Shown piece by piece: positions 2,930 through 62,871 of a stretch of DNA of 64,000 nucleotides; positions within the stretch are counted from its first letter, which is position 1; every line of letters starts with the position of its first letter. Source of the stretch: Elusimicrobia bacterium GWD2_63_28 (GTDB lineage Bacteria; Elusimicrobiota; Elusimicrobia; Elusimicrobiales; UBA9959). The notes under the pieces were generated by a model. The model made no database searches and was not told where the DNA came from. It worked only from the letters and a program-made list of their open reading frames with translations. The DNA is taken from NCBI GenBank assembly GCA_001799895.1, contig MGUI01000044.1, forward strand, positions 55,483-119,482, given 5' to 3'. The position numbers and the translations under genes are program-made.

Positions 2930-3616
2930 ATGAAAACCATATCGATAGCGCTTTCCGCGGTACTCTTTTTCAATACGCTGCCGGTTTTCAGCCTTGAGGG
3001 GCCGGGGGAAGACAAAGAATATTTCATAGAGGCCGGGGACGTTATAAATATCAACGTTTTCCCCGCCCAGGAATTTTCGAAAGAAGTGACGGTGCAGCCC
3101 GACGGCAACATCGAGATCCCGCTGCTGGGCTCCATGAAGGCGCAGGGCATGAAGCCGGGCGAGCTGGAGAAGGTGCTGACGGCGAAGTTCTCGAAGTACG
3201 TCTCCAACCCTTCCATAACGCTGAACATCAGAAAATTCTCTTCCAGCAGGGTGGCGGCCATAGGGCAGGTTCTCAACCCCGGCTATTACGAGTACCGCGA
3301 GGGAATGCGCCTGCTGGACCTGCTGGCCCAGGCCGGCGGCCACCAGGATTACGCCCGCAACGCCAAGGTTCGCATTTTCCGCAAGGTAAAACTTGAGGGG
3401 GACAAGCTCAGCGAGCAGGTGATACAGGCCGACCTGGAGAAGGTGCTGGCCGGGGACATGGAGAAGAACGTGCTGCTGGCCAGCGGCGACATAATTTACA
3501 TCCCGCGCAAACCCTACTCGGCCGCGGCCAAGTGGATAACGGACAACGTTACCCCGTGGGCCACGCTCTTCATGTTCACGATCACCGCCGGTATCGTGGT
3601 GAACAACAACAGGTAA
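2930..3616 (+). CDS. Polysaccharide export protein, Wza/GumB-like (Poly_export + SLBB-type domains)
   Basis: Signal peptide present. The motif GDVININVF...VTVQPDGNIEIPLLGSMKAQGMKPGELEKVL...Y is typical of the Poly_export domain. The second half (GDIIYIP) is SLBB-like. An AT-rich promoter-like tract lies at 2881-2929. Confidence 0.8.
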   Translation: MKTISIALSAVLFFNTLPVFSLEGPGEDKEYFIEAGDVININVFPAQEFSKEVTVQPDGNIEIPLLGSMKAQGMKPGELEKVLTAKFSKYVSNPSITLNIRKFSSSRVAAIGQVLNPGYYEYREGMRLLDLLAQAGGHQDYARNAKVRIFRKVKLEGDKLSEQVIQADLEKVLAGDMEKNVLLASGDIIYIPRKPYSAAAKWITDNVTPWATLFMFTITAGIVVNNNR

Positions 3617-3618
3617 AT

Positions 3619-5481: not shown

Positions 5482-6864
5482 ATGCCGATAATAATAGTCC
5501 TCGTCGCGCTGGCGGCGGCCGGCTGGCTGGGCTTCATGGCCGCGGCCGGCGGGCAGTATTATATCCTGGTAGGGGGCAGCGTCCTGCTGGTGGCCCTGCT
5601 GGCCTTCTTCCGGCCTAAGCTCAGCCTGGCGCTGCTGGTCTTCTCAATGCTGCTGTCGCCGGAGTTAACCATGGGCACCCTCACGGCCCAGCGCGAACTG
5701 GTAATCCGTTACGACGACATACTGCTCATTATCATCTTCCTCTCCTGGTTCGCCCGCACGGCCATACAGAAGGACAGGCCCTTCATAACCTCTACTCCGG
5801 CGCAGATGCCGGTGCTGCTCTACACCGCGCTCTTCGTGATCTCCACCGCGTTCGGCGTCATGCGCGGCGACATTTCCTGGGCCTATTCCACGCTCTACGT
5901 CCTCAAATATATCGAGTATTTCCTGCTCTTCTTCATGGCGGCCAATATAGTGGAGTCCGAAGAGGACGTGAAATACTTCCTGCGCCTGGGGCTTATCGTC
6001 GCGGTGCTGGTAACGATCTACGCGTATTTCTATTATTACAGCGCGGGGATCGGTACCCGCGCCACCGCCCCGTTCGAAGCCGCCATCGGCAGGCCGGAGG
6101 AAGGGGAGCCGGCCTCGCTGGGCGGGTATTACCTGCTTGTCTTCGGGGTGTTCATGGCGATGCTCGTGGAGGGCGGGGGGCTCGGCCTTTGGCGGGTGCT
6201 GCTCCTGCTGGCTTTCATGTTCCCGGCCTTCCTGATAACTTTTTCCCGGGCGTCCTATATAGGCTTTATCTTCATGGTGCCGGCGCTGTTCCTGCTAACC
6301 CAAAAGCGGCGCATCCTGCTTGCCGGGATCTTCGCCGCCGGGCTTCTCGCGGTGTCGCTGATGCCGGTCTTGAAGCAGAAAGTCATGGACCGCATAACGA
6401 TGACCTACCGCGGGGCATACGCCACGGAAAACATCCGGACGGGCTTGGGCGGGACCGTGAGGCTTGAACTTTCCGCCGCTGAGCGGGTCTATTCGCTGAA
6501 GCGGGTCATCTTCGAAAAACTTCCAAAACACCCGCTGATCGGGTGGGGAGTCACCGGGGTGGGCCTGGGCGATACGCAGTATTCTCTGATCTTGGGAGAG
6601 GTGGGCCTGCTGGGCGCGGCGCTGTTCTGCTGGATGCTCTACCGCCTGCTCTTTACGGCCAAGGTTGTATGGAAGTCTTACCAGGATCCCTATATCCGGG
6701 CGCTGGCGCTGGGTTTCATTATAGCTACGGTGGGGCTACTTTTTCAGTCGCTCGGGGTCAACAGTTTTATTATCGTCCGCATCATGGAACCTTACTGGTT
6801 CATGGCCGCTATGCTTGGCGCGCTTTACCTTAAGCGCAGAAAAACGGAAGAGGCGGCCAGCTAA
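5482..6864 (+). CDS. O-antigen polymerase/ligase family (Wzy-like) polytopic membrane protein
   Basis: About 10-12 hydrophobic helices with a large loop, an overall Wzy_C-like architecture. It is positioned between the Wzc-like and flippase genes. Confidence 0.65.
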   Translation: MPIIIVLVALAAAGWLGFMAAAGGQYYILVGGSVLLVALLAFFRPKLSLALLVFSMLLSPELTMGTLTAQRELVIRYDDILLIIIFLSWFARTAIQKDRPFITSTPAQMPVLLYTALFVISTAFGVMRGDISWAYSTLYVLKYIEYFLLFFMAANIVESEEDVKYFLRLGLIVAVLVTIYAYFYYYSAGIGTRATAPFEAAIGRPEEGEPASLGGYYLLVFGVFMAMLVEGGGLGLWRVLLLLAFMFPAFLITFSRASYIGFIFMVPALFLLTQKRRILLAGIFAAGLLAVSLMPVLKQKVMDRITMTYRGAYATENIRTGLGGTVRLELSAAERVYSLKRVIFEKLPKHPLIGWGVTGVGLGDTQYSLILGEVGLLGAALFCWMLYRLLFTAKVVWKSYQDPYIRALALGFIIATVGLLFQSLGVNSFIIVRIMEPYWFMAAMLGALYLKRRKTEEAAS

Positions 6865-7027
6865 GCCGCCCAGCCCCGGTTTTTCAGGCGCCAGACCCAA
6901 ACGCGGAGTATTATCGCTTCAGACGTTCCGAGACACTCCCGGTAACTTTGGGCCTCGCCGTAATGCTAATGTCTGGATGCGAATTTCAGGGAGATGGGGG
7001 CGGCCCCGCACAGAAAAAGTATACGTG

Positions 7028-8587
7028 ATGAACACGGATAAAAAAATCGCAAGAAATACGCTGTATAATACGGCCGGGTATATATGGAGATCCCTCCTGA
7101 ATATATTGATAACGCCGTATATAGTGTTACGGCTTGGGAATGAGCAGTTCGGCATCTGGGCGCTTGTCTTCGCAGTGGTCGGATATTTTTACTTGATCGA
7201 TATGGGGATCGGCAGCGCCTATGCAAAATTTATCGCTGAATGTTATGCAAAAAATGAGCACAAGAAACTGAATGAAATAGTTGCTACCGGGCTGGTTTTT
7301 AATATAGCGGTTAGTTCTGTCGTTGTGCTGCTGACCGCGGTTTCCGGAAAATGGGTGATAGGGATATTAAAAATCCCGCAAGCGTATCACGGCGAGGCTG
7401 TTTTCGCGCTGCTTGGCGCTGTTGTGGTTTTTTCATTGTCGCAGGTATCCGGAGTGTTCAGCTCGGTCGTAATTGGACTGCAGCGAATGGATCTGGGCAA
7501 TAAAATATCAATCGCGGTGTCGATAGCTAATACGGCTGGAACGATTCTGGTTTTAGAGTCGGGTTTCGGGATACGAGGGCTTGTCGTTAATTTCGCGATA
7601 ACGGCGCTCCTTACGGGGCTAAGCAATCTCTACGCTACGGTTAAATTGCTTCCCTCCTTCAGTATTGGAGTCAGTGAAATTTCCTTTGAGACCTTTAAGA
7701 TGCTTTTTTCTTACGGGATAAAAATCCAGGCAAGTAATATTTCCAGCCTGATGAACTTGCAAACGCAAAAAGTCTTCCTGGGTTATTTTATGAATATGTC
7801 TGCCGTAACTTTTTATGAACTGGGAAGCAAGGTTTCCAATACGGCCAGGTCGCTGCCGATGCTGTTGTTCTCCGCCGTAACCCCGGCCTCTTCGGAACTA
7901 TATTCGCAATCGGATACGGGGCGGTTGAATAAATTATATTTAAAAGGCTCAAAATACCTTTATTCCATAACTATCCCGATGGCGGTATTTCTCTTTTTTG
8001 ACGCGGGCTTGATTATGACTTCGTGGATGGGGAAAGGATATGAATCTTCGACCCTGGTGATACAGTTCCTTGTAACAGGGTATTTTTTTAATTTATTGAC
8101 CGGCCTGGCAACATCTATGGCCCGGGGAACAGGGGACGTGGTTTATGAGATGAAGTCTTCTATACTAATATTGGCATTGAACATCCCGCTGAGTATTATC
8201 CTGATAAATAAAATTGGACTGATGGGCGCTCTAATAGCGGCATCTGGCACTATAATAATAGGTTCGATTTATTACATGATACTGTTCCATCGTCACGTAA
8301 TAAAGCTTCCTGTGGTTCCTTTTGTCACAGATATGAGCTTTAAACCGTTGATTTTCAGTATGATTTCATGCGGCGGGGTCTGGCTGCTCAATAAACTTAT
8401 CGGTGACAGTCTTGGCACCGGAAGAATTGGCGGCATAGTCGTTTTAACGGTTGATTGCCTGACGTTTGGCTTGATATATTGCTCATTGATCTTGAAAACT
8501 GACTACCTTGAGAAAGGCGACCTCCTGATGATTATGGAGCACCTGGGCATCTTGAACCGGAAGGTACAGGGCTCCAATTCGCATTAA
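7028..8587 (+). CDS. Polysaccharide flippase (Wzx/MOP superfamily)
   Basis: The N-terminus KIARNTLYNTAGYIWRSLLNILITPYIVLRLGNEQFGIWAL is typical of Wzx/RfbX-type flippases, and about 12-14 TM helices follow. The ATG at 7028 was chosen; the track ORF start at 6815 adds a non-membrane basic extension. The gene is markedly AT-richer than its flanks. Confidence 0.8.
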   Translation: MNTDKKIARNTLYNTAGYIWRSLLNILITPYIVLRLGNEQFGIWALVFAVVGYFYLIDMGIGSAYAKFIAECYAKNEHKKLNEIVATGLVFNIAVSSVVVLLTAVSGKWVIGILKIPQAYHGEAVFALLGAVVVFSLSQVSGVFSSVVIGLQRMDLGNKISIAVSIANTAGTILVLESGFGIRGLVVNFAITALLTGLSNLYATVKLLPSFSIGVSEISFETFKMLFSYGIKIQASNISSLMNLQTQKVFLGYFMNMSAVTFYELGSKVSNTARSLPMLLFSAVTPASSELYSQSDTGRLNKLYLKGSKYLYSITIPMAVFLFFDAGLIMTSWMGKGYESSTLVIQFLVTGYFFNLLTGLATSMARGTGDVVYEMKSSILILALNIPLSIILINKIGLMGALIAASGTIIIGSIYYMILFHRHVIKLPVVPFVTDMSFKPLIFSMISCGGVWLLNKLIGDSLGTGRIGGIVVLTVDCLTFGLIYCSLILKTDYLEKGDLLMIMEHLGILNRKVQGSNSH

Positions 8588-8620
8588 GGACAGAGCTGCG
8601 GGAAGATTCTGCAACTAAAA

Positions 8621-9769
8621 ATGAAAATTAATTTTAATTTCGTGCATTTCGCGCATACTGGCGGGATCCGTGTGCTGTTTGAGATAGCCAATGAATTGGT
8701 GCGGAGAGGGCACGAGGTTACTTTCACACACACCTGCAAGGACAGCGGCATAAACTGGTTCAAAGTAAACGTAAAACTCGTAAAAGTGTCCAACGCATAT
8801 TATTCTTTCCAGTACTTGTTGCACAGGCTGTTCCGCAAGGGGGCGGCCGCTCTTTCCAATAACCGGATTTCAAACCAGGTTCTGAACTATATTTATACGG
8901 ACAAGATCCTGCGCGGCGCCATGCCGGATTGCGATATAAACATTGTCTCCAATCGTTTAACTGTTTGGCCCACATTTAGAAGCAAAAAAGGCAGACCATT
9001 CTATTTAATGCTCGGCTATGATGCGTTTTTTGAGTCTGACCCTGAGGTAAAGGAACTGATAAATGATTTTTTTAAATTGCCGATAAACTTTGCGGCAAAT
9101 TCTATATGGCTTAGGGATAAAATTAAAGAAGACCATGGAATTACTTTGCCGATAATTAATCCGGGCATAGACCATAAAATGTTTTATCCCAGGAAAGCAA
9201 ATAGAAAATCCAATAAAAAACAGGTCCTTTGTTTTGGCAAGAAAGATGCGTGGAAAGGTTTTTGTGACGCCGTGGAGGCCATGAAAATTGTATTTAAGGA
9301 GCGCGGCGATGTCGAGTGGGTCGTATATGGCGCAGAGCCTCCTGCGCCACAGAACTCCGAGGCGCCTTATAGATTTGTAAAACCCGCAAATGATGAGGAG
9401 TTGGCGGGGTTGTATTCATCTTCGGATGTTCTTTTCCTGCCGTCATGGTACGAGAGTTTTCCTTTGCCGCCTATAGAGGCAATGGCGTGCGGGACTCCCG
9501 TGGTAACAACCAGATTTGGAACGGAAGATTACGCCTTTGACGGAAAAAATTGCCTGGTCGTGCCGCCAAGGGAGCCGGGAAAAATGGCAGAATCAATATT
9601 GAAATTGCTTGAAGATCGGGATTTGGCTGATAAGTTCCGAAAAAATGGTTTAAAGACCGCAGAGAAATTTACCTGGAAAAACACTGTTGATGCTTTAGAG
9701 AAACGCTTTTTTGAAAGTTTGCCTGCAGACGGCAAGGGTTCTGATGAAGCGGCGCCAGGCAATCAATAA
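8621..9769 (+). CDS. Glycosyltransferase family 4 (GT-B, retaining)
   Basis: C-terminal donor-binding motif SWYESFPLPPIEAMACGTPVVTT (E-x7-E type). Confidence 0.8.
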   Translation: MKINFNFVHFAHTGGIRVLFEIANELVRRGHEVTFTHTCKDSGINWFKVNVKLVKVSNAYYSFQYLLHRLFRKGAAALSNNRISNQVLNYIYTDKILRGAMPDCDINIVSNRLTVWPTFRSKKGRPFYLMLGYDAFFESDPEVKELINDFFKLPINFAANSIWLRDKIKEDHGITLPIINPGIDHKMFYPRKANRKSNKKQVLCFGKKDAWKGFCDAVEAMKIVFKERGDVEWVVYGAEPPAPQNSEAPYRFVKPANDEELAGLYSSSDVLFLPSWYESFPLPPIEAMACGTPVVTTRFGTEDYAFDGKNCLVVPPREPGKMAESILKLLEDRDLADKFRKNGLKTAEKFTWKNTVDALEKRFFESLPADGKGSDEAAPGNQ

Positions 9770-9810
9770 TTCTGGTTTGGAAAGCCACTGCGCCCCGGAT
9801 GGAAGGAATC

Positions 9811-10518
9811 ATGAAATTCACTGGTGAAAGAGTGATTGAAGGCGAAACACCTTCCAGGATCTGGCTTGAGCATGTTGCCCGCTACGAATTTGCTTCGGAT
9901 TGGGTCAGGGGGAAGAAGGTGCTGGATATTGCCTGCGGAACCGGTTATGGTTCCAGATTGTTGCATGATCATGGGGCAAGCACGGTCCTGGGAGTCGATA
10001 TCGATGCAGAGGCCGTTAGTTATGCAAATAAAAGGTATGGATGTCCCGGATTGGAATTTGCGGCTGGCGACGCACTGAACTTTAAGGCCAGCGCGGACTT
10101 TGATGTGGTTGTTTCTTTCGAGACACTCGAACATCTACCGGCCCCGGCACAATTTGTCCGTTCAATCCCGTCCCTGCTGGTTAACTCAGGCATTTTTATC
10201 GTCTCCACGCCTAACCGGAGAGTGACTTCGCCCGGGAAACTGATCGCTGAAAAATGCGATAACCCGTTCCACCAGATTGAATATGCGAAAGGGGAGTTCG
10301 CTGAACTCCTCGGGGAATCCTTTGGAAGCGTGAAAATTTACGGCCAGCGCGAAAATCACAAGCTCAAAGTATTGTTTATTAAAGCGATTCGGAAAGTTGC
10401 CGGCATGTTTTCGACGCAGCCATATGTGCTAATCGATGGGGAGCCTGAGGTGAAAAAAATATCCGCGTTATATGAGCCGCGGTATTTTGTCGCGGTCTGT
10501 TCCTCTTCACGGACGTGA
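9811..10518 (+). CDS. Class I SAM-dependent methyltransferase
   Basis: Motif I is VLDIACGTGYGS; a post-I acidic residue and the FETLEHL motif are present. A GGAAGGA RBS favours the ATG at 9811 over 9799. Confidence 0.8.
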   Translation: MKFTGERVIEGETPSRIWLEHVARYEFASDWVRGKKVLDIACGTGYGSRLLHDHGASTVLGVDIDAEAVSYANKRYGCPGLEFAAGDALNFKASADFDVVVSFETLEHLPAPAQFVRSIPSLLVNSGIFIVSTPNRRVTSPGKLIAEKCDNPFHQIEYAKGEFAELLGESFGSVKIYGQRENHKLKVLFIKAIRKVAGMFSTQPYVLIDGEPEVKKISALYEPRYFVAVCSSSRT

Positions 10519-10568
10519 ATGGTTCCCGGAAGGGCTGTTTGGCGGGCCGAGTATCCTGTAAAGTGAGT

Positions 10569-10601
10569 GTCCCCGTAAACTTGGTCGGGGACGGTTGTTT
10601 T
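10569..10601 (+). terminator. Intrinsic terminator-like hairpin at the end of the AT-rich cassette
   Basis: GTCCCCG-(10 nt)-CGGGGAC followed by GGTTGTTTT. Confidence 0.5.
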
Positions 10602-10614
10602 AAATGAAATCGCT

Positions 10615-11544
10615 ATGGACAAACCAGTGATCTTCGTGAATATCCTGGCCTGGAACGGGGAAAGGTGGCTTAAGGGCTGCCTGGATTCCGTGTTTGCGTC
10701 GGAGGGGGCGGATTTCAAGGTCCTGGTGGTAGACAACGGTTCTTCCGACCGCAGCGCGGAGATAGTCGAAAAGGACTATCCGCAGGCGCTGCTCGTCCGG
10801 AACGCGGCGAACCTGGGTTTCGCTGAAGGGAACAATGTCGGCATCAGGTACGCGCTGGACAGGGGCGCGGACCAGGTCGTCCTTCTCAACCAGGATGTGA
10901 CCGTCGACCGGCAATGGCTGTCCCAATTGCTCTCCGCCGCCGAGACCGAAAGGGAATTCCAGATCTTCGCGCCGCTGCAGTACGACTACGAAGGCCGCGA
11001 ACTGGACAGGCTCTTCCTGCGTGGGATGCTGGACATGAGCCCCGAATTCGCCGAGGACTATAAAAAAGGGGAGGGCTTCCGGAAGATCTATCCCCTGCCG
11101 ACGGCTTTAGGCGCGGCGGTCCTGATAAAAAAAGAGGTGTTCCTGAAGGCCGGCGGTTTCGACCCGTTCTACTTCGTCTATCATGAGGAGACGGACCTTT
11201 TCCAGCGCTGCGCTTACCACGGTTTCCGGATAGCCCTTGCGCCCGGCAGCAGGATCAATCACTGGCACGGCTCGCTGCATCCGGAGGAGATGGCCCTGCG
11301 GAGCAGGTACCTGACCTACCGCAATAAATTAGTGCTGATGCTGAAAGACCCGCGGATTTCGGTCTTTAGCGGCCTGTTGGCCTGTTTTTCCTGGAGCTGG
11401 CAATTCGCTGCCGAGAACGCGGGCCCGGCGCGCGGCTTCCTGCGGATAGCCCTTGTCGCGTGGCTGCAACTGCTTGTGCTGTTCTACCTGCCGCTTATAG
11501 CGTATAAACGGTTCAGGGAAAAGAGGGGGGCATGCTATTTATGA
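10615..11544 (+). CDS. Glycosyltransferase family 2
   Basis: N-terminal GT-A signature: ILAWNGERWLKGCLDSV....KVLVVDNGSSDRS, then GFAEGNN and VVLLNQDV. Confidence 0.8.
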   Translation: MDKPVIFVNILAWNGERWLKGCLDSVFASEGADFKVLVVDNGSSDRSAEIVEKDYPQALLVRNAANLGFAEGNNVGIRYALDRGADQVVLLNQDVTVDRQWLSQLLSAAETEREFQIFAPLQYDYEGRELDRLFLRGMLDMSPEFAEDYKKGEGFRKIYPLPTALGAAVLIKKEVFLKAGGFDPFYFVYHEETDLFQRCAYHGFRIALAPGSRINHWHGSLHPEEMALRSRYLTYRNKLVLMLKDPRISVFSGLLACFSWSWQFAAENAGPARGFLRIALVAWLQLLVLFYLPLIAYKRFREKRGACYL

Positions 11545-51010: not shown

Positions 51011-51919
51011 TTAGTCGTCCGGGGTTTCATCCGCCGCGGGAGGTTCCGCAGGGGCGGGGGGCTGCTGCTGCGCGGCCGGCTGTTCGGCCGGCAGGGGCTG
51101 GCCTGGCGCGGGCCAGGCCTGGTCGGGCGTTCCCGGGGCGATGGCCGGCACGGGCTCCGTCCTGACCCCTTCCGGGGTCTCGCCGGGCAGCCAGGTCCTG
51201 TCAGGCTGCAGCGGGGGGCCGGAGAGCGCGGGCTTTTTCTCCTCCGGCTCGGCGGGCTTGGGGGGCAGCTCGCCGGCCGCGCCCGCCGCCTTCAGCCTGG
51301 AATATACGTCGGTGGCCGAGCGCCACAGCATCTGCTTGAGCAGGCCGCGCTCGCGAGAACCCGGCGAGAAGAAGGGGTAGAGCGGGGCCATCAGCAGGTG
51401 GAAGGTGGTCTTGTTGCGCGCCTCGGTCTCCACGCGCACCGGCCCGCCTGAGGCGGCGAAATCCGCGGTCAGGTAATAGTTCACCCGGAGCGAGGCGGGC
51501 AGCAGGAAGATAAAACCGGTGTCCACCAGGAAGGAGCGGAACAGGTCGCTGTAGGTCCACCGGCCGAAGCTGGTCAGCTCCAGGCGCAGCGTGCCGCGGC
51601 CGCGCGCTTTGTCGTAGAGGCCGGCTTCGGCGAAGATTCCCCTGGCCCGGCGGGCGAAGGCTTCCGCCTCCTCCGCGTCCACCGGCACGGGCTTGATCTT
51701 TTTCGGGTTGGTGAGGGAGCCTTCGCCGATGGAATCCGTGGGCGCCCGGTAGGGGTAATTCTGCCAGTAGACCTCTATGGCGGAAAAGGGGACCAGGGTC
51801 TTGTCTTCGAACATGGCGCTCGCGGTCTCCCGCTCGACCCTGACGTCGCCCGAATTGAAGGAGGCGCAGCCGCAAAGGCCCGCCGCGGCTAGGAGAAGTA
51901 AAAGTTTATGTTTTGTCAT
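51011..51919 (-). CDS. Lipoprotein of unknown function with Pro-rich C-terminal tail
   Basis: The lipobox is LAAAGLCGCAS. The C-terminal 90 aa are Pro/Ala/Glu-rich. Confidence 0.6.
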   Translation of the reverse strand: MTKHKLLLLLAAAGLCGCASFNSGDVRVERETASAMFEDKTLVPFSAIEVYWQNYPYRAPTDSIGEGSLTNPKKIKPVPVDAEEAEAFARRARGIFAEAGLYDKARGRGTLRLELTSFGRWTYSDLFRSFLVDTGFIFLLPASLRVNYYLTADFAASGGPVRVETEARNKTTFHLLMAPLYPFFSPGSRERGLLKQMLWRSATDVYSRLKAAGAAGELPPKPAEPEEKKPALSGPPLQPDRTWLPGETPEGVRTEPVPAIAPGTPDQAWPAPGQPLPAEQPAAQQQPPAPAEPPAADETPDD

Positions 51920-51988
51920 CGTTTAGGCCCGGGGCGTACTGACCGCCGTCATTATGAAAAGCACCTTATTTTTACTATATTATATTAT

Positions 51989-53185
51989 ATGGCGCTGAAA
52001 AAAATCGAAAAGATAATTAAAACCGAGGGCAAGCCCGACATCATCATAAGGCTGGCCAAGGTTCCCGACATGCGCCGCATACAGATGCTGTACGCGGAAG
52101 TGTACGGCGCCGCCTACCCGATACCGATCATCGCCGACAAAGACAAGATGCGCAGCGCCATCGAGAACGACGAGTATTACTGGCTGGTGGCCGAATGCCA
52201 GAGCCGCGTGATAGGCAGCCTGGTCTATTCGGTGGACCTGCTGTACCGCAACTCCAAGGCCTTCGGCGCCGTGGTCAGCCAGGAGTTCCGCAAGCACGAC
52301 CTCGCCTTCACCATGATGAAGCTGGTGCTCGACGACATCACGCAGACCAAGGACCTGGTGGACCTGGTCTACGCCACCACCCGCACCGCCAACCACGCCC
52401 CGCAGAAGCTGACCGAGAGCCTGGGCTTCATCAAGCTGGGCATCTTCCCCAACACGCACAAGGTGCAGGACAACGAGACGCATTGCCTGACCGCCTATTT
52501 CACCGAGCGCGCCCTGCAGCGCCGCCGCACCACGCCCGTCATCATCCCCGAGATAGCGCCGTTCTACGAGATCGTCCGCCGCCAGATCAAGCTGGAGCCG
52601 GCGCAGCTCAGCGACGTCAAGCGCGACTACAGCGACCACAAGACCAAGATCCCGCTCTTGAACTTCGAGACCATCACCGCGACGGAGTTCATCAAGCACC
52701 GCTGGAAGAAGACGAAGAGCAACAGCTTCTTCGAGAATATCTTCATGCCTTTCCACGAGCCCAACCTGATCCTGATCACTCCGGACCAGGGCACCGAGGT
52801 GTACATTACCTACAGCCAGAAGGACAAGTACAGCGTGATCGTGGGCGGCGTGACCAACGAGAAAAGCTTCGCCGTGGTGCTCGAGAGCGTGGCGCAGAAG
52901 GTCAGCCAGATGGACATGAGCTACGTGGAGGTCATCATAGACGCCTACTCCCCGGAGCTGCAGCGCGACGCGCTGGACGCCCGCTTTATCCCCAGCGCCT
53001 ACTTCCCCAGCGCCAAGCGCATGGAAGACAAGCGCTACGACTGCGTGGTCTTCTCGCGCACGTTCGACATCCTGGACTTCCGCAACGTCAGGATCATCTC
53101 GCTCTACAAGAACTTCCTTAACGAGTACCTGAAGCTCTGGCGCGAGAATTACATAGAGCTGGTTTTCGACTCGGAACAGAAATAG
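51989..53185 (+). CDS. GNAT-family acyltransferase N-domain with uncharacterised C-terminal domain
   Basis: The GNAT-like core is WLVAECQSRVIGSLVY...FGAVVSQEFRKHDLAFTMMKLVL...A.KLTESLGFIKLG. The ATG at 51989 follows an AT-rich promoter-like tract; the track start at 51908 overlaps the divergent gene. Confidence 0.6.
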   Translation: MALKKIEKIIKTEGKPDIIIRLAKVPDMRRIQMLYAEVYGAAYPIPIIADKDKMRSAIENDEYYWLVAECQSRVIGSLVYSVDLLYRNSKAFGAVVSQEFRKHDLAFTMMKLVLDDITQTKDLVDLVYATTRTANHAPQKLTESLGFIKLGIFPNTHKVQDNETHCLTAYFTERALQRRRTTPVIIPEIAPFYEIVRRQIKLEPAQLSDVKRDYSDHKTKIPLLNFETITATEFIKHRWKKTKSNSFFENIFMPFHEPNLILITPDQGTEVYITYSQKDKYSVIVGGVTNEKSFAVVLESVAQKVSQMDMSYVEVIIDAYSPELQRDALDARFIPSAYFPSAKRMEDKRYDCVVFSRTFDILDFRNVRIISLYKNFLNEYLKLWRENYIELVFDSEQK

Positions 53186-53193
53186 GGGGACCC

Positions 53194-54363
53194 GTGGCCG
53201 ATCTTTCCGCAGAGGACAAGCTGCCGCCTTTCCATAAGCCGCTCAAAAGCCGCGCCGCCATGGACGCGCTGTTCGAAACGCCGGCTTTCGATTATTCGCC
53301 CCGTACCTCAAAGGCCTTCCTGGCCGCGATGCGCGCCGCGCTGGACTTCCAGGGCCGCCGCGCTCCGGTGCTGAAGGCGCTCTACAGGGCCGAGGGCTTC
53401 TCTCCGGCGTCGGTGCGGACCGAGGCCGACATCCCCAAGATCCCCTATATTTTCGTCGCGGCCCTCAAAGAGCGCGACCTGACCACGCTGCCATATTCCA
53501 AAATAGCCCTGGAGCTGAAGTCCAGCGGCACGTCGGGCCAGCGCTCGCGCATGCAGCTGGACCGCGGCTCGCTGATGCGCGTGAGGCGCATGGCCTGGAG
53601 GGTCTTCGAGGGCCTGGGCCTGACGGACCTGGAGCGGGCGCACGACTATATCTGCTTTACCTACGACCCGGAGGTCGCCAAAGACCTGGGCACCGCCTGG
53701 ACCGACAAGCTGCTGACCGGCTTCACGGCGAAGGGGGAGATCTTCTACACCTTCCGCTGGAGCAAGGCCAAGAACGATTTCTACTTCGACATAGACGGCG
53801 CGGTGCTGGCGCTGAAAAAGTTCGAGGCTTCCGGCAGCCTGGTGCGGCTGGTCGGCTTTCCCGCCTTCGCGCTGAAGCTTACCGAGGAGTTCAAGAAGCG
53901 CTACGGCCGCTACCCCGCGCTGAACCCGGGCTCCTCCGTGGTCACCGGCGGCGGGTGGAAGACGCTGTCGGACGAGGCGATGGACAAGAAGGTCTACCGC
54001 AAGATCCTGGCCGACAGCCTCGGCGTCCCGGCCGGCAACGTGCGCGACCTGTTCGGCATGGTGGAGCACGGCGTGCCTTACGTGGACTGCCGGCTCGGCA
54101 ACTTCCATATCCCCAATTACGGCCGCGTCATCGCGCGCCACCCCGGGACGCTTGCGCCGCTCGGCTTCAACAAGGCCGGGCTGCTGCAGTTCATCACCCC
54201 GTACCTGGCCAGCTACCCGTCGCTGTCGGTGCTGTCCTCGGATTTCGGCCTGGTGCGAAAGCGCTGCTCCTGCGGGCTGAAGGGCCCCGTGCTGGAGATA
54301 AAGGGCCGCGCCGGAGTAACCAAGCTTAAAGGCTGCGCCATCTCGGCCGCCACCATGCTGTGA
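53194..54363 (+). CDS. LuxE-like acyl-protein synthetase (adenylate-forming)
   Basis: Motifs LKSSGTSGQRSRM, VVTGGGWK and DLFGMVEHG. The length and N-terminal helical region resemble LuxE family members. GTG start. Confidence 0.7.
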   Translation: MADLSAEDKLPPFHKPLKSRAAMDALFETPAFDYSPRTSKAFLAAMRAALDFQGRRAPVLKALYRAEGFSPASVRTEADIPKIPYIFVAALKERDLTTLPYSKIALELKSSGTSGQRSRMQLDRGSLMRVRRMAWRVFEGLGLTDLERAHDYICFTYDPEVAKDLGTAWTDKLLTGFTAKGEIFYTFRWSKAKNDFYFDIDGAVLALKKFEASGSLVRLVGFPAFALKLTEEFKKRYGRYPALNPGSSVVTGGGWKTLSDEAMDKKVYRKILADSLGVPAGNVRDLFGMVEHGVPYVDCRLGNFHIPNYGRVIARHPGTLAPLGFNKAGLLQFITPYLASYPSLSVLSSDFGLVRKRCSCGLKGPVLEIKGRAGVTKLKGCAISAATML

Positions 54364-54400
54364 GGAGTCTATCGAGGCTTCGACTCGATAGGGAAGGCTC

Positions 54401-57037
54401 ATGAAAATACATAACACTTATCTTTTCGGCAAAGCCCTGGACAAGGCGGCCTGGACCCCGGCCGAGCTGGAGAAGATAGGCCTGCAGGCGCAGGCCGCGC
54501 GCGGACTGCTGCGGGGCGTGCCGCGCGAGTACATCATCGAAACCCTGGCCAAAGCCGGCCAGCTTTTTAAAAAGGGCAGCGCCTACCGCAAGGCCGCGCT
54601 GGCCCACCTCAAGGACCACATCACCTTCTCCGGGCCGGTGATAGAAAAAACCCTCGACGTGATACCCGAACTGCTGAACAAGGCCGCCCTGAACAAGCGC
54701 ATGAACATGGAGTTGTTCCTGCCCTACGCGCTGGAGACCTCCGTGGAGCGGCGCGGCTACTCCGGCCTGATCCGGGCCATGCCCAAGGGCGTGGTGCTGC
54801 ACGTAGGCGCCGGCAACGTCTTCCTGGGCATACTCGACTCGCTGGTCATCGGTTTTCTGACCAAGAACGTCAACATCGTGAAGCTCTCCTCCTCGGGGTC
54901 GAGGTTCATCAACCTCTTCATGGCCGCGCTGGCGGAGGCGGACGAGAAGGGCGCGCTGGCGAAATCCGCCGCGGTGCTCAGCTGGAAAGGCGGCAGCCAG
55001 GGGCTGGAGGAGGCCGCGCTAAAGCACGTCAATGCCGTTTTTGTCTGGGGCGGCTACGACGCCGTGCAGGCCTACCGCAGGATCGCCCCTATCGACGTGC
55101 GCGTGGAGGGATTCGGGCCCAAGACCAGCGTGGGCGTGGTGTTCGAAAGCTGCATAACGCACGAGGGCATGGATAACGTGGCCCGCCGCGCGGCGCTCGA
55201 CGCCTCGCTGTGGGACCAGGCGGCCTGCTCCTCGCTGCATACCCTTTACCTGATAGCGCCCGCGAAAAAGCACAAGGCGCTGGCGGCCGAATTCCTGAAG
55301 TGCGCGAAGACGCATTTCGCGGCCCTGGCCGCCGACCTGCCGCCCGGCAAGCTGTCGCCCGACGAGATGGTGGAGATAACCAAGGCCCGCCAGCTGGCCC
55401 GGGTGGACCAGGCCCTCGGCAACGCCTCCTATATCAGCTCCGCGCCTAAAACCGACTGGACGGTAATTTACGAGAGCGACCCCGTGTACCGCGTCTCGCC
55501 GCTAAACCGCGTGCTTTACGTCAAGACCGTGGAGACTTTGGAAGAGGTGCGCGACCGCCTACTGCCGCTGCGCGGCTATATCCAGACCGTGGGCGTGGGC
55601 GGCTCGATAGAGCGCAAGAAGGTGATGGAGACGCTCGGGCCCGCCGGCATAGCGCGCGTGGTGCGCCTCGGCAAGATGCTCGAGGAGTCCAACGGCTCCC
55701 CGCACGACGGGATCTTCCCGATGATGTCCCTGGTGAACTGGCTGCCGATAGAAGAGAAGCCGTCGCAGCTGGACCGCATCAGCGAACTGGTGGATTACGC
55801 GCGCAGCCGCAGCCCCTTCTACAAGAGGCATTTCAAGGATGTGCCGCGCATAGTGACCGTGGCCGATTTCCAGAAGGTGCCGTTCCTCGAGAAGCACCAC
55901 GTCCTGGAGAACACGCCGCCCGACAGCGCCGACCTGCTGACTTCCAAGGTGCGGCGCGGCATCTTCTTCGCCAGCGGCGGCTCCACGGGCCAGCCGAAAT
56001 ACGTCTTCTACGACCAGCACGAGTACGACCATACCTGCCGCATGCTGGCCTCTTCCATGGAGGCGGCAGGCCTCGGCGAGAAGGACATCATCGCCAACCT
56101 CTTCGTGGCCGGCAACCTCTGGTCCAGCTGGCTCTCCGTGGAAAAGGCCATCGCTTACACCAAGGCCATCTCGGTGCCCGTGGGCAGCAACCTGCCGCTG
56201 GAGAACATCGCCGGGTATCTGCACGATTTCAAGGTGACGGCCGTGGTGGGGCTGCCGTCCTTCCTGGTGAAGATGGCGGAGTTCGCGCGCGCGAACCCCA
56301 AATATAAGATCCCCCTCAGGCATATCTTCTACGGCGGTGAATACGTGGGCGAGGAGATGGTCAAGTTCTTCAAGAGCGTCTTCCCCGGGGTGGACGTCCG
56401 CTCGGCGGGCTACGCCACGGCCGACGCCGGCGTGCTGGGTTTCCAGTGCCCGTCCTGCGTGAAGGGCCAGCACCACCTGTTCGCCTTCAGCCAGTTCATT
56501 GAGTTCGTCAACCAGGACACCATGGAGCCGGTGAAGAAGGGCGAGATCGGCGAGCTGGTGGTGACCGGCCTTTCCAAGAAGCACATGCCCATCATCCGCT
56601 ACCGCGTGGGCGACCTGGGCCGCTGGATCCTGAAACCCTGCGCCTGTGCCCGCAAGGAGCCGCTGTTCGAGATCCTGGGACGCTGCGACGACCGCATACA
56701 CGTCGGCGGAGCGCATTTGTTCGTCAACGACATACAGGAAGCCCTCGGCAAGGTGCCGGACCTGACCTTCAACTTCCAGGTGGTCATAGCCAAGAAGGGC
56801 CACCGCGACACGCTGGACATACGCGTGGAGGTAAAGGACCCCGCCGCGCTGGCGCGCGCCGGGGAGCTGGCGGACCTGCTGTGGCGGGCGCTGGAGAAGC
56901 ACTGCGAGGACCTGCACGAGAGCGTGCGCATGAAGTGGCTGGATAAGCCGGAGATAGAGGTGCTCAAGCCCAATTCCATAGAGCGCATACAGCGCACCGG
57001 CAAGATCCGCAAGGTGATAGACAAGCGCATCGTCTGA
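54401..57037 (+). CDS. Fusion: LuxC-like acyl-CoA/acyl-protein reductase (aa 1 to about 440) plus PaaK/CapK/F390-synthetase-like adenylate-forming domain (about aa 445-878)
   Basis: The N-terminal half has VLHVGAGNVFLGILDSLV...KNVNIVKLSS and LWDQAACSSLHTLYL (candidate acyl-Cys). The C-terminal half has FFASGGSTGQPKYVFY, GLPSF, YGGE and IIRYRVGDLGRW. It is a single 878-codon frame. Confidence 0.7.
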   Translation: MKIHNTYLFGKALDKAAWTPAELEKIGLQAQAARGLLRGVPREYIIETLAKAGQLFKKGSAYRKAALAHLKDHITFSGPVIEKTLDVIPELLNKAALNKRMNMELFLPYALETSVERRGYSGLIRAMPKGVVLHVGAGNVFLGILDSLVIGFLTKNVNIVKLSSSGSRFINLFMAALAEADEKGALAKSAAVLSWKGGSQGLEEAALKHVNAVFVWGGYDAVQAYRRIAPIDVRVEGFGPKTSVGVVFESCITHEGMDNVARRAALDASLWDQAACSSLHTLYLIAPAKKHKALAAEFLKCAKTHFAALAADLPPGKLSPDEMVEITKARQLARVDQALGNASYISSAPKTDWTVIYESDPVYRVSPLNRVLYVKTVETLEEVRDRLLPLRGYIQTVGVGGSIERKKVMETLGPAGIARVVRLGKMLEESNGSPHDGIFPMMSLVNWLPIEEKPSQLDRISELVDYARSRSPFYKRHFKDVPRIVTVADFQKVPFLEKHHVLENTPPDSADLLTSKVRRGIFFASGGSTGQPKYVFYDQHEYDHTCRMLASSMEAAGLGEKDIIANLFVAGNLWSSWLSVEKAIAYTKAISVPVGSNLPLENIAGYLHDFKVTAVVGLPSFLVKMAEFARANPKYKIPLRHIFYGGEYVGEEMVKFFKSVFPGVDVRSAGYATADAGVLGFQCPSCVKGQHHLFAFSQFIEFVNQDTMEPVKKGEIGELVVTGLSKKHMPIIRYRVGDLGRWILKPCACARKEPLFEILGRCDDRIHVGGAHLFVNDIQEALGKVPDLTFNFQVVIAKKGHRDTLDIRVEVKDPAALARAGELADLLWRALEKHCEDLHESVRMKWLDKPEIEVLKPNSIERIQRTGKIRKVIDKRIV

Positions 57038-57057: not shown

Positions 57058-57089
57058 GAAGGCCCGGGAAACCGGGCCTTCTTTATTTT
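57058..57089. terminator. Bidirectional terminator between convergent genes
   Basis: GAAGGCCCGG-GAAA-CCGGGCCTTC followed by TTTATTTT. Confidence 0.8.
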
Positions 57090-58392: not shown

Positions 58393-58479
58393 ACTAGGGA
58401 AAATATAGCAATTATGGACGGCCGGCCGCAGTTCCGCGTCTTCCTGAACTCAGACCGGCCTTGTAGTATAATTGCTTGT

Positions 58480-60561
58480 ATGAAAGCTCTCCTTTTCCTC
58501 ATCTTCGCCTCGCAGGCGGCCTGGGCGGCCGGCCCGGCGGCGCCTCCCGCGGACCCCTATCTCTGGCTCGAAGAAATTGACGGGGCGAAGGCGATAGACT
58601 GGGCGCGGGCCCGCAACAATGAGACGCTCTATGAGCTGCAGACCGATCCGCGCTACAAGGCCGCCTACGACCGGGCCCTCGCCATCTACGACTCCAACGA
58701 ACGGATCCCGCGCATAGCGATGCGCGGCGGCTACGCCTACAATTTCTGGCAGGGCCCGGGCAGCCCGAAGGGCCGCTGGCGCCGCGCCCCGCTGTCGGAG
58801 TTCCTGGCAAAAAAGGCCCCCGCCTGGGAGGTGCTCATCGACATCGACATGCTGGCCGCCATAGAAGTAGAGAACTGGGTTTACAAGGCCGCCTCCTGCC
58901 TGCCGCCGGCCGGGGAGCTGTGCCTGATCAGCCTGTCCCGCGGGGGAAAGGACGCCGTGGTGGTGCGCGAGTTCGACGTCCGGAAAAAAGCTTTCGTCGA
59001 AGACGGGTTCAGGCTGGAAGAAAGCAAGAGCGCGGCGGCCTGGCTGGACGCGAACACGCTGCTGCTGGGAGAGGCGCTTTCGGCCGACTCGCTGACGGAT
59101 TCCGGCTACCCCCGCGTAGTCCGCAAGTGGGCCAGGGGGACGGATCCGCGCAAGGCCCCGGTGCTGCTGGAGGGAAAAAAGAGCGACGTCACCGCGGGGG
59201 GCTGGTGCTCTTTCCGGCCGGAAGGCGTCAACTGTTTCGTGGTCCGGGCCCCCTCTTACTTCGAGTCCGAGGTGTTCCTGATCGCCGGAGATAAACTGAA
59301 AAAGATGCCCCTGCCCCCGGACGCGGCGGTGAGCGACGTCTTTAACGGCAAGCTTTTGCTGACCCTGCGCAGCGACTGGAAGCTTAAGGACAAGACCTTC
59401 AAGCAGAATTCCCTGCTGGGCGTAGGCCTGGAAGCGGCCGGGCAGCCCGAAGAGCGGGCGGAGCCCCGCCTGGTTTTTGAGCCGGGCCCCCGGATGACGG
59501 TAGAAGGGGTTTCTCTCACCAGGGACGTCATGCTGCTCACCCTGCTGGACAATGTGAAGGGGCGCATCCTGAAGGTGGGGCCCTCCATAGGCGGCCTGCA
59601 CACCGAGGAAGTGCCGGTGCCGCCCAACGGGGCCGCGTATATCTCGGCGGCCAGCGACTACGCGGGTGAATTCCTGTTCGGTTACCAGAATTTACTGACG
59701 CCGCCGTCGCTTTATTATTCAGGCAAGCCCGGCGCGCCCATCAAGCAGGAGAAGCCCAAGTTCGACGCCTCCGGCTTTGAAACCGAGCAGCGCGAGGCAG
59801 TCAGCGCCGACGGGACGAAGATCCCGTATTTCCTGGTCTCTCCCAAGGGCATGAAGCGCGACGGGAAGAACCCGACCTTGCTTTACGGCTACGGGGGGTT
59901 CGAAAATTCCATGCTGCCCTATTACGCCTCCGTCACGGGCGCCCTCTGGCTGGAGCGGGGCGGCGTTTACGTCCTGGCCAATATCCGCGGGGGCGGCGAG
60001 TTCGGCCCCGTCTGGCACCAGGCCGCGCTAAAGGAGAACCGCCAGAAATCTTTCGACGACTTTATCGCCGTGGCCGAGGACCTCGTCAAGAGCGGCGTTA
60101 CCTCGCCCCCCAAACTGGGCATCTGGGGCGGCAGCAACGGCGGGTTGCTGGTGGGCGCTGTCTCTACGCAGCGGCCGGAGCTGTTCGGCGCCGTGATTTG
60201 CGAGGTGCCGCTGCTGGATATGCTGCGCTACACCAAACTGCCGCCTGGCGCTTCGTGGGTGGGGGAGTTCGGGGACCCGGAGGACCCGGTGCTGGGCCCG
60301 GTCATCGCAAAATATTCCCCGTACCAGAATGTGCGCGCCGGGGTTAAATACCCGGCTATTTTCTTCCTGACCTCCACGAAAGACGACCGGGTACATCCGG
60401 GCCACGCCCGCAAAATGGCCGCCAAACTGAAGGACCTGGGGCACAAGGTCTATTATTACGAGAACATGGACGGCGGGCACAGCGCGGCCGCCAGCAACGC
60501 GGAGTCAGCCAGGCGCCTGGCGCTCGAGTATACGCTGCTGATGCGCAAGCTGATGGACTAG
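58480..60561 (+). CDS. Prolyl oligopeptidase family (S9A) serine peptidase, secreted
   Basis: The signal peptide starts at the ATG at 58480. DPYLWLEE is the family N-terminal motif. The nucleophile is in GGSNGGLL, and DDRVHPGHARK and GGHS complete the triad. Confidence 0.85.
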   Translation: MKALLFLIFASQAAWAAGPAAPPADPYLWLEEIDGAKAIDWARARNNETLYELQTDPRYKAAYDRALAIYDSNERIPRIAMRGGYAYNFWQGPGSPKGRWRRAPLSEFLAKKAPAWEVLIDIDMLAAIEVENWVYKAASCLPPAGELCLISLSRGGKDAVVVREFDVRKKAFVEDGFRLEESKSAAAWLDANTLLLGEALSADSLTDSGYPRVVRKWARGTDPRKAPVLLEGKKSDVTAGGWCSFRPEGVNCFVVRAPSYFESEVFLIAGDKLKKMPLPPDAAVSDVFNGKLLLTLRSDWKLKDKTFKQNSLLGVGLEAAGQPEERAEPRLVFEPGPRMTVEGVSLTRDVMLLTLLDNVKGRILKVGPSIGGLHTEEVPVPPNGAAYISAASDYAGEFLFGYQNLLTPPSLYYSGKPGAPIKQEKPKFDASGFETEQREAVSADGTKIPYFLVSPKGMKRDGKNPTLLYGYGGFENSMLPYYASVTGALWLERGGVYVLANIRGGGEFGPVWHQAALKENRQKSFDDFIAVAEDLVKSGVTSPPKLGIWGGSNGGLLVGAVSTQRPELFGAVICEVPLLDMLRYTKLPPGASWVGEFGDPEDPVLGPVIAKYSPYQNVRAGVKYPAIFFLTSTKDDRVHPGHARKMAAKLKDLGHKVYYYENMDGGHSAAASNAESARRLALEYTLLMRKLMD

Positions 60562-61738: not shown

Positions 61739-61854
61739 GTACTATATCGTACCTGATGCCGGCTCCTCCCGGGAGGGGCCAAGGGCCCTTTAACTTAAGG
61801 CTTTGTTCCTATCCCGGGGTAGGCCTTTAGGCCGCTATTTGATACCATTTGTCC

Positions 61855-62871
61855 ATGCGGATAGAGGTTTTTGACCCCTTAAACGGCTCTCCTGAATTAT
61901 GGGAGGCGTATTTTGCCGTTACGGAAGAGATACGCGAAGAAATTATTCCTGGAGAGCCGAACCTGCCGCGGGAGAAAAGAAAACTCGCGCTGCGGTCGGA
62001 GGCCTCAGAGCTTTATTACCGGAATATCCATTTCCTCGCCTTCGCTGAAGGGGGGGAAGCCGCCGGCTACGCCAGGCTGATCGCAGAAACTCCCGCGTCG
62101 CCGTCCTATGAAGGCAACAAGCATTTGGCAACTATCGGGGTCCTGGTCGCCAAAGCCCACAGGCGCAAAGGTTTAGCCTCTGCGCTTTTCACCCGCGCTC
62201 TTTCCAAAGGCAGGGAACTCTCCCCGGCCTTGAGCGAGGTGAGGTCGCACGCTACGCTTAACTCCGGCTGCCTGTTCCTGGAGAAGCTCGGCGCCAAGCT
62301 TTCCCTGGAGTCGGCCGAAAACAGGCTGCAGCTCGGCAAGGTGAACTGGGAAATGGTCGGGGCCTGGGCCGGAGAAGGCGAGCGCAAAAATCCTGGCACA
62401 AAAGTAGTTACGGCCTTTACGATACCCGAAGAAGATATAGCGGATTTCGGCAGGGCCTACGCCGAGATCTGCGACCAGGAGCCTGTCGGCGGCCTGAAGC
62501 TGCGCAACGAATTTCCTCCTGAGAAGATCCGGGCCGCCGAGCGCAAGCTGGCCGAGCGGGGGATGACCGAGCTCACGATGTATTCAAAAGAGGCCGACGG
62601 GCGGGTGAGCGGCCTGACCGAGATCTTTTATCAGGAGGAGACCGGGCACAAGGTCAGCCAGGGCCTGACCGGGGTGCGGCTGGCCTACAGGGGGCGCGGG
62701 CTGGGCAAGCTGCTCAAGGCCAGGATGCTGCTCCATGTCAGGAAAAATTATCCCGGCGTAAAATATATCGCTACGGGGAACGCCGACTGCAACGCGCCGA
62801 TGCTCGCGATAAACCGCCGGCTGGGGTTCAGCCGGCACCTGTCGGTAAAGGTTTACAGTCTTGAGCTATAA
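61855..62871 (+). CDS. GNAT-family N-acetyltransferase (tandem GNAT-like halves)
   Basis: Motif A-like segments are VLVAKAHRRKGLASALFTRAL and GVRLAYRGRGLGKLLKARML. The C-terminus reads NAPMLAINRRLGF. Confidence 0.65.
   Translation: MRIEVFDPLNGSPELWEAYFAVTEEIREEIIPGEPNLPREKRKLALRSEASELYYRNIHFLAFAEGGEAAGYARLIAETPASPSYEGNKHLATIGVLVAKAHRRKGLASALFTRALSKGRELSPALSEVRSHATLNSGCLFLEKLGAKLSLESAENRLQLGKVNWEMVGAWAGEGERKNPGTKVVTAFTIPEEDIADFGRAYAEICDQEPVGGLKLRNEFPPEKIRAAERKLAERGMTELTMYSKEADGRVSGLTEIFYQEETGHKVSQGLTGVRLAYRGRGLGKLLKARMLLHVRKNYPGVKYIATGNADCNAPMLAINRRLGFSRHLSVKVYSLEL

Follow-up and report, generated by a model that had tools for sequence, protein, structure and literature searches.

A three-gene LuxE, LuxC::PaaK-like and tandem-GNAT operon of Elusimicrobia as a putative distant relative of the leupeptin operon

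The window analyzed here is a stretch of 64,000 nucleotides (64 kb) from contig MGUI01000044.1 of Elusimicrobia bacterium GWD2_63_28, and the system in question is a compact operon of three genes, g1, g2 and g3, that occupies positions 51,989 to 57,037. The operon combines a GNAT acyltransferase, a LuxE-type acyl-protein synthetase and a single polypeptide in which a LuxC-type reductase runs directly into a PaaK-like adenylating domain, and it is probably a distant relative of the leupeptin operon leupABCD. The genes, the two halves of g3 and the signals around them are as follows, in coordinates of the window.

51989-53185, plus strand: g1, predicted tandem-GNAT acyltransferase, open reading frame (ORF) of 398 amino acids (aa)
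53194-54363, plus strand: g2, LuxE-type acyl-protein synthetase, ORF of 389 aa with a GTG start
54401-57037, plus strand: g3, LuxC::PaaK-like fusion, ORF of 878 aa
54401-55756, plus strand: LuxC-type acyl-thioester reductase half of g3, residues 1-452 (Pfam, alignment to PDB 7xc6)
55757-57037, plus strand: PaaK-like adenylate-forming half of g3, residues 453-878 (Pfam, NCBIfam and PDB matches, LeupB alignment)
51920-51988, no strand assigned: AT-rich divergent spacer of 69 bp between a lipoprotein gene and g1, with candidate promoters in both directions
54364-54400, plus strand: g2-g3 spacer of 37 bp, with a short inverted repeat and a ribosome-binding site
57058-57081, no strand assigned: bidirectional terminator-like hairpin between g3 and a convergent gene for an HI0933-like flavoprotein

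An earlier reading of the letters, made without database searches (hereafter, the sequence-only reading), had placed three co-directional genes at this locus, and the ORFs lie exactly where it claimed, with gaps of 8 bp between g1 and g2 and 37 bp between g2 and g3. The ribosome-binding sites in front of g2 and g3 are purine-rich (GGGGGA and GGGAAGG). A longer ORF for g1, starting at 51908, is also present; this start is unlikely because homologues begin at MALKK. Minus-strand ORFs across the operon are the usual shadow ORFs of DNA with a G+C content of 63%. The AT-rich divergent region described by the sequence-only reading contains sigma-70-like hexamers on both strands (51954-51983 on the plus strand and 52001-51974 on the minus strand), and is a candidate promoter region for both of the genes that diverge from it. 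The hairpin terminator proposed after the operon likewise corresponds to a G+C-rich, terminator-like structure, in which GAAGGCCCGG and CCGGGCCTTC, separated by GAAA, form a stem of 10 pairs, eight of them G-C; T-runs flank the hairpin on both sides, with TTTATTTT following the stem on the plus strand. The inverted repeat inside the g2-g3 spacer (CTATCGAG gcttcga CTCGATAG, 54368-54392) could form a small RNA hairpin acting on translation or processing. Rfam and tRNA scans detected no Rfam family and no tRNA in the window.

The protein encoded by g2 matches the Pfam family LuxE (2.7e-33). Its alignment to LuxE of PDB 7xc6 places K256 (within TGGGWK), R372 and C381 on K238, R355 and C364, respectively, and the three g2 residues are invariant across 81 homologues. 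In LuxE itself, K238, R355 and the acylated Cys364 have catalytic roles (PMC9157457). The first half of g3 belongs to Pfam LuxC (residues 43-447, 2e-69), followed in the second half by AMP-binding (525-723) and AMP-binding_C_2 (770-876). Aligned to LuxC of 7xc6, Cys276 of g3 (DQAACSS) falls on the cysteine of DQQAC, which is the acylation-site cysteine of LuxC (PMC9157457, citing Lee & Meighen 1997), and the AGNV nucleotide motif is present as well. The PaaK-like half carries an SGGSTGQPK P-loop, a YRVGDLG motif and a C-terminal subdomain with the G-K lysine, Lys868; it matches the PaaK entries 4r1l, 2y4o and 2y27 of the PDB at 1e-37 to 1e-29, with GKxRxVxDKR aligned. Among 25 distant fusions sharing only 25-61% identity, there is almost no variation at Cys276 or Lys868. 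Profile hidden Markov model (HMM) comparisons thus support the LuxE, LuxC, AMP-binding and GNAT families named by the sequence-only reading and give their domain boundaries. The motifs that this reading had picked out in g2 and in both halves of g3 prove to be the catalytic ones when aligned to 7xc6 and to the PaaK structures, and Pfam, NCBIfam and PDB alignments agree that the adenylating domain of g3 is complete and in frame.

The junction within g3 is tight: the LuxC domain ends near residue 452 and the PaaK-like domain begins near residue 455, with no linker. This junction is kept in more than 100 independent Elusimicrobia protein clusters, down to 52% identity, and therefore the fusion is not an artefact. 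An assembly error or frameshift at this point, considered as a trivial explanation, was ruled out by the retention of the junction in hundreds of independent assemblies and by the existence of triple fusions, described below. It is likewise kept in more than 100 full-length representatives (800-900 aa, 27-38% identity) among the best 150 matches of the HMMER search described below.

Comparison with the named families indicates that g2 and g3 are relatives of the lux and PaaK equivalog families rather than members of them. NCBIfam LCFA_lig_LuxE gives 81.6 bits for g2 against a cut-off of 550, and LCFA_red_LuxC gives 120.8 bits for g3 against a cut-off of 750, while the direct scores against LuxE and LuxC of 7xc6 are 70 and 84 bits, respectively. 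The nearest NCBIfam model for the C-terminal half of g3 is PaaK (1.6e-44), at 152 and 149 bits against cut-offs of 700 and 646. The window is predicted to share with LuxCE the steps of the LuxC-LuxE ping-pong mechanism, for which the cryo-EM structure 7XC6 is available (PMC9157457): adenylation, self-acylation of LuxE on its C-terminal Cys, passage of the acyl group to the Cys of LuxC, and reduction by NADPH to an aldehyde. The key residues are kept. Unlike in LuxCE, however, the LuxC domain in the window is fused to a second complete adenylating domain. Judged by their residues and scores, g2 and g3 are thus predicted to work like LuxCE yet lie outside the lux equivalogs. Similarly, the C-terminal half of g3 shares its fold, motifs and C-terminal lysine with PaaK and PaaK-like amide/CoA ligases (PDB 4r1l, 2y27, 2y4o, 6siw and 6wuq), but differs from PaaK in its fusion to a reductase, its sub-cut-off score and a gene context unrelated to paa catabolism.

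The first gene is less conventional. Pfam recognizes Acetyltransf_1 in g1 only weakly (residues 54-147, 3.2e-5). In the AlphaFold model of the whole protein (pLDDT 84), the order of strands and helices typical of GNATs appears twice, and all matches of this model to PDB folds are GNATs, at about 1e-9. The C-terminal 198 aa, modelled separately with a moderate pLDDT of 71, match GNATs only (3e-6 to 1e-4). At the level of sequence, the internal repeat is marginal (hhalign), and a phmmer search of PDB sequences with the C-terminal domain gave no match. On the basis of these models, g1 is predicted to be composed of two consecutive GNAT folds, an N-terminal one at about residues 15-175 that is LeupD-like (see below) and a cryptic C-terminal one at about residues 225-360, followed by a long terminal helix. 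The GNAT assignment of the sequence-only reading therefore stood, whereas the C-terminal domain of about 200 aa that it could not recognize now appears by modelling as a second GNAT fold; a new fold was rejected for this domain, as the fold searches return GNATs. At 61849-62871 of the window, 5 kb downstream of the operon, lies another, unrelated GNAT gene of two domains (340 aa, with two stretches of Acetyltransf_1).

Leupeptin is acetyl-Leu-Leu-argininal, and its classical enzymology in Streptomyces comprises a leucine acyltransferase, a leupeptin acid synthetase and an ATP- and NADPH-dependent leupeptin acid reductase. A leupeptin operon, leupABCD, was reportedly described by Li et al. in 2020 (Angew Chem 59:17872, doi 10.1002/anie.202005506) from Photorhabdus, Xenorhabdus and Klebsiella; its product is acetyl- or propionyl-Leu-Leu-argininal. 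The coordinates of the leup operon in K. oxytoca CAV1374 and the primers leupA_f and leupB_r are published (PMC8283571). The operon is known to lead to leupeptin and derived pyrazinones and has been called narrowly distributed (PMC11480411), and antiSMASH includes a region type 'Leupeptin' (PMC12542766). The idea of a link between the window and leup came from the chemistry of the pathway, and was then tested by fetching the operon of the Klebsiella oxytoca complex from metagenome contigs with leupA_f. The scan returned eight loci, and in one of these, L090, the second primer lies at exactly the published distance of 1,235 bp. The genes of L090 are the following.

Upstream of leupA, partial ORF (303 aa): MFS transporter
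leupA, 378 aa: LuxE
leupB, 801 aa: LuxC (43-413)::AMP-binding (416-663) fusion
leupC, 446 aa: PaaK-like ligase
leupD, 305 aa: GNAT

The leupA_f site itself (L090:1049-1069) starts with an ATG, yet this triplet lies in another frame than the LuxE-type ORF at 988-2124 and is not the start codon of leupA.

All three proteins of the window have homologues in this operon. Over 354 aa, g2 shares 34% identity with LeupA (E = 4e-65), and g3 is 27% identical to LeupB over 651 aa, colinear across the junction and through both domains (E = 9e-58); these similarities are much higher than those to LuxE and LuxC. g1 matches a profile built from LeupD and the GNATs of the type-2 clusters introduced below with a probability of 94.7% (E = 5.7e-8), and direct BLASTP against LeupD gives 26% identity over 139 aa (E = 0.003). 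Shared between leup and the window are a LuxE-type synthetase with a C-terminal Cys, a LuxC reductase fused directly to a PaaK-like domain in one polypeptide, a GNAT with an N-terminal 'VYG..Y..P' signature, and the lack of both carrier protein and nonribosomal peptide synthetase (NRPS). A LeupA-like LuxE, a LeupB-like fusion and a LeupD-type GNAT are thus all present in the window; a LeupC-type ligase is not. The gene order differs, being GNAT-LuxE-fusion in the window and LuxE-fusion-ligase-GNAT in leup, and so does the host, here an uncultivated lineage of Elusimicrobia; among the loci sampled from it, the cassette is near-universal and keeps its synteny.

The sequence-only reading knew of no characterized pathway with this architecture and took it for a candidate undescribed system. 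This claim is wrong, because the leup operon contains the same parts (LuxE, LuxC::AMP-binding, a PaaK-like ligase and a GNAT) and has a published product. As the architecture is known from the leupeptin operon, the window does not hold a new kind of system. The biochemical idea behind the claim fared better: two carboxylate-activating modules, a thioester reductase and an acyltransferase that together give an aldehyde or N-acylated product match the logic of the leupeptin system, although that system can no longer be called undescribed. Literature searched under lux, PaaK, GNAT and partner-switching themes yielded no publication on a LuxC::PaaK-like fusion, and the related chemistry found there occurs in other architectures only, namely lux, the Aeromonas flagellin islands, luxE of Riemerella, RfbN of V. 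cholerae and TabE of tambjamine. No description of the individual Leup enzymes was found in the literature searched.

The distribution of the trio was examined by an exhaustive HMMER search of 1.8 billion representative proteins, which returned 498 proteins at E < 1e-30, and by a pattern scan of one genome per species, which revealed fusion relatives in 352 species-representative genomes from many phyla. Homologues of g1, g2 and g3 occur together in 57 of 63 Elusimicrobia-type loci; the remaining six are without g1 or g2 in the available stretch, and a contig end clearly explains four or five of them. The same trio is found in Armatimonadota, Wallbacteria, Muiribacteriota and one further lineage, while flanking genes vary among distant members. 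Hosts among the best 80 loci and in the further protein search include Armatimonadota, Riflebacteria, Wallbacteria, Muiribacteriota, Vulcanimicrobiota, Acidobacteria and Deltaproteobacteria, as well as Rhodopseudomonas palustris and pseudopalustris, Marichromatium gracile, Desulfofustis limnaeus, Hippea alviniae and Muribaculaceae. The three genes are thus conserved as neighbors in Elusimicrobia and beyond, and they are, to judge from these genomes, functionally coupled.

Independent evidence that the three catalytic modules work together is provided by triple fusions LuxE::LuxC::ANL, one in an Armatimonadetes genome (L069:5711-9655, 1314 aa) and one in a metagenome protein (P0306, 1276 aa). 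Another long protein, P0242 (1244 aa), was considered as a fusion to a GNAT and rejected; its tail consists of Clp_N and YgbB and is taken as read-through of neighboring genes. In five Elusimicrobia genomes (L013, L016, L052, L056 and L064), 1-3 kb of extra DNA splits g1 from g2 or g2 from g3. The coordinates are 622-1896 (g1) and 3429-4598 (g2) in L013, and 1564-2829 (g1) and 5742-6911 (g2) in L016.

A larger, six-gene set surrounds LuxE and the fusion in Rhodopseudomonas, Marichromatium, Hippea and Muribaculaceae; these clusters are referred to as type-2.

L085:2502-14369, L087:5200-17011, L086:2554-11700 and L084:1663-11220: type-2 loci, with HATPase_c_2::GNAT, MFS_3, cryptic ligase, PaaK-like ligase, LuxE and LuxC::ANL
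L086:5185-6537, L085:5194-6558, L087:14353-15711 and L084:3145-4536: the cryptic protein of about 450 aa in each of them

The type-2 fusions are 30-34% identical to g3 and the type-2 LuxE is 39% identical to g2. The type-2 GNAT gene encodes about 490 aa, in which an RsbW-type HATPase_c_2 domain is joined to the GNAT. The cryptic protein has no Pfam match, but a profile of three of its members is colinear with PaaK-like domains (1e-7 to 3e-4), and it looks like a very divergent PaaK-like adenylate-forming enzyme. Homologues of the extra type-2 genes were detected by phmmer in L077 (Acidobacteria) and L078 (Deltaproteobacteria), and Desulfofustis is a further type-2 host. In the type-2 clusters, the stand-alone ligase is a homologue of LeupC and the GNAT a homologue of LeupD. 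What the type-2 clusters share with the window is a LuxE, a LuxC::PaaK-like fusion and a LeupD-like GNAT, and what they have in addition is a LeupC-like ligase, the cryptic ligase, MFS_3 and the HATPase_c_2 domain on the GNAT. When LeupC, MFS_3, the cryptic ligase and partner-switching proteins were used as queries against the 64-kb window, nothing clear was found; the STAS query alone gave a match, a marginal one (E = 8e-4). Two of the four type-2 loci, those of Marichromatium and Muribaculaceae, are adjoined by a dCache-HAMP-SpoIIE phosphatase, an anti-sigma-type kinase and a STAS protein, and these are the two loci with enough flanking sequence for such neighbors to be seen. This arrangement suggests that a partner-switching relay may control type-2 synthesis through the kinase-like domain that is joined to the GNAT. 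No published description of the type-2 clusters was found in the literature searched.

The genes, their intact active sites, the conserved trio and the homology to the Leup proteins are directly established. Intermediate architectures also exist between the trio and leup, in the form of an Armatimonadota locus with the order GNAT-LuxE-MFS_3-LuxC::ANL (L072) and of the type-2 clusters, which have a GNAT, MFS_3, a LeupC-like ligase, LuxE and the fusion. The operon is probably, at odds moderately better than even, a distant and reduced three-gene relative of leupABCD that would produce a small N-acylated peptide aldehyde or amino aldehyde by an NRPS-independent route. In such a pathway, the LeupD-like g1 would N-acylate an amino acid from acyl-CoA. 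The PaaK-like domain of g3, the counterpart of the ligase half of LeupB, would activate a carboxylate by adenylation and form a single amide bond between it and the amine of a second amino acid. The LeupA-like g2 would then adenylate the free C-terminal carboxylate and hold it as a thioester on its own Cys381, from which the acyl group would pass to Cys276 of the LuxC domain of g3 for NAD(P)H-dependent reduction to the aldehyde. Since no LeupC-type second ligase is present in the window or in about 60 related loci, the product is expected to have one residue fewer than leupeptin (acyl-Xaa-Yaa-al or acyl-Xaa-al), provided that the one ligase does not act iteratively.

Several observations weigh against this assignment. 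All four steps are inferred from homology, and the assignment of steps to the Leup proteins is itself drawn from domain chemistry and the older Streptomyces enzymology. Identities to the Leup proteins are low (26-34%), and LeupB is the outlier of the whole fusion family, with 25-28% identity to every other member while the others share 30-57%; orthology and substrate class are therefore not to be assumed. The alignment of g1 with LeupD is restricted to the N-terminal domain; their C-terminal halves do not align, and a tandem protein of 398 aa in the window stands against a LeupD of 305 aa. No ORF resembling LeupC or the PaaK-like ligase of Hippea is present in the 64-kb window besides g3 (and, weakly, g2), and no LeupC was found within ±7 kb at the 63 Elusimicrobia-type loci. 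An adjacent MFS exporter is likewise absent from the window and from the ±7 kb around the 63 related loci. Finally, the strict synteny and vertical conservation of the cassette in Elusimicrobia look more like those of a housekeeping function than of a sporadic secondary-metabolite cluster.

In a second reading, possible but clearly less probable, the operon is not a leupeptin pathway but a distinct minimal aldehyde machine (tandem GNAT, LuxE and LuxC::ligase). Its product could be an N-acyl dipeptide or amino aldehyde with a specificity that is new, or else an aldehyde that is not a peptide, and its role would be a quasi-housekeeping one across the lineage, given that nearly every sampled Elusimicrobia-type locus carries the cassette in synteny. 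The type-2 relatives would then produce undescribed exported aldehydes, gated by a partner-switching phospho-relay acting on HATPase_c_2-GNAT.

A rival that stays close to lux, and that is in essence the proposal of the sequence-only reading, is unlikely. Here g2 and the LuxC domain would reduce a fatty acid to a fatty aldehyde or alcohol, and the PaaK-like domain and the GNAT would attach another acyl group to yield, for example, a precursor of the wax-like, N-acyl or ether-lipid kind. The best named Pfam and NCBIfam matches are indeed LuxE and LuxC of fatty acid reductase, the catalytic residues of that mechanism are kept, and vertical, syntenic conservation in Elusimicrobia is what a membrane-lipid function might show. 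However, the scores fall far under the lux equivalog cut-offs (82 against 550 and 121 against 750 bits), g2 and g3 resemble LeupA and LeupB far more closely than LuxE and LuxC, and the relatives are linked to an MFS_3 exporter and to extra amide-type ligases. Neither a LuxD-type acyl-ACP (acyl carrier protein) thioesterase nor an ACP or lipid-synthesis gene is among the scanned or listed genes of the window and its relatives, for which no dedicated search was made; luxA, luxB and luxD, also without a dedicated search, had no match among the scanned genes of the window or the called genes of related loci. A fatty-acid substrate of the lux kind is not indicated.

The same chemistry could also act on a non-peptide acid, such as a dicarboxylic or hydroxy acid with one carboxylate reduced and the other activated and moved to an amine, which appears unlikely and marginally more so than the lux-like route. 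Some glycan-modification loci are known to contain LuxC and LuxE homologues without luciferase (PMC7874193; PMC4772473, citing Morona et al. 1995), among them the flagellin glycosylation islands of Aeromonas (PMC7874193), and chemistry of this type has been proposed for the tetronate side chain of the V. cholerae O1 antigen, involving RfbK-O, of which RfbN has a LuxE domain (PMC4772473). An adenylating enzyme, LuxE/LuxC and an acyltransferase are common to such glycan loci and the window. The glycan loci, however, contain separate LuxC and LuxE genes and an ACP, with no LuxC::ANL fusion (PMC7874193). No glycosyltransferase, sugar-nucleotide or ACP genes adjoin the cassette in the window or in the listed related loci, and the polysaccharide locus of the window is about 40 kb away. 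The latter, at 5482-11544, is a region of low G+C content (45-55% compared with about 63%) with the genes of a surface-polysaccharide locus (Wzy-like, Wzx/MatE flippase, GT4, methyltransferase and GT2), and is unrelated to the operon. A regulatory or protein-modifying role, in which the GNAT acylates a protein or the enzymes self-acylate as a signalling output, can be largely set aside: it draws on the RsbW-type HATPase_c_2 domain of the type-2 GNAT and on the SpoIIE phosphatase, anti-sigma-type kinase and STAS set beside two of the four type-2 loci, but g1 of the window has no HATPase_c_2, the 64-kb window has no clear partner-switching genes (the STAS match being marginal), and the type-2 MFS_3 'secretion effector' transporter together with up to four adenylating enzymes fits a regulated, exported small molecule better.

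Two neighbors of the operon deserve mention. The gene that diverges from g1 (51011-51919, minus strand) encodes a lipoprotein of 302 aa without a Pfam match and with a Pro/Ala-rich C-terminal tail. It is syntenic with the cassette in 50 related loci, which may reflect mere kinship of the genomes or a functional link. An S9 prolyl oligopeptidase with an N-terminal hydrophobic, possibly signal, segment is encoded at 58414-60561, 1.4 kb downstream of the operon. The prolyl oligopeptidase class has classical inhibitors in the N-acyl dipeptide aldehydes, and the enzyme was considered as a partner or target of the operon; it was ruled out, being present in one of the 80 related loci, and since this neighborhood is not conserved its proximity is probably a coincidence.

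Relative to the leupeptin operon, what appears to be new is the form without LeupC and without an exporter, a three-gene set with a tandem GNAT that is vertically conserved in Elusimicrobia. The breadth of distant leup-like clusters over phyla, with one sub-family tied to a partner-switching module, also appears to be new. Leupeptin and other peptide aldehydes potently inhibit proteases and give rise to pyrazinone signals, and the NRPS-independent route to them has so far been described from a few Gammaproteobacteria. With only 25-34% identity to the Leup proteins, relatives such as these may be hidden from leup-based searches. The three-gene form offers a compact test bed for a LuxE/LuxC acyl relay that is coupled to an amide ligase without carrier proteins. 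Leup-like enzyme logic of a distant form occurs in at least 352 species-representative genomes across Elusimicrobia, Armatimonadota, Acidobacteria, Proteobacteria, Hippea and gut Muribaculaceae, and this breadth suggests that the family of small aldehyde metabolites is much larger.

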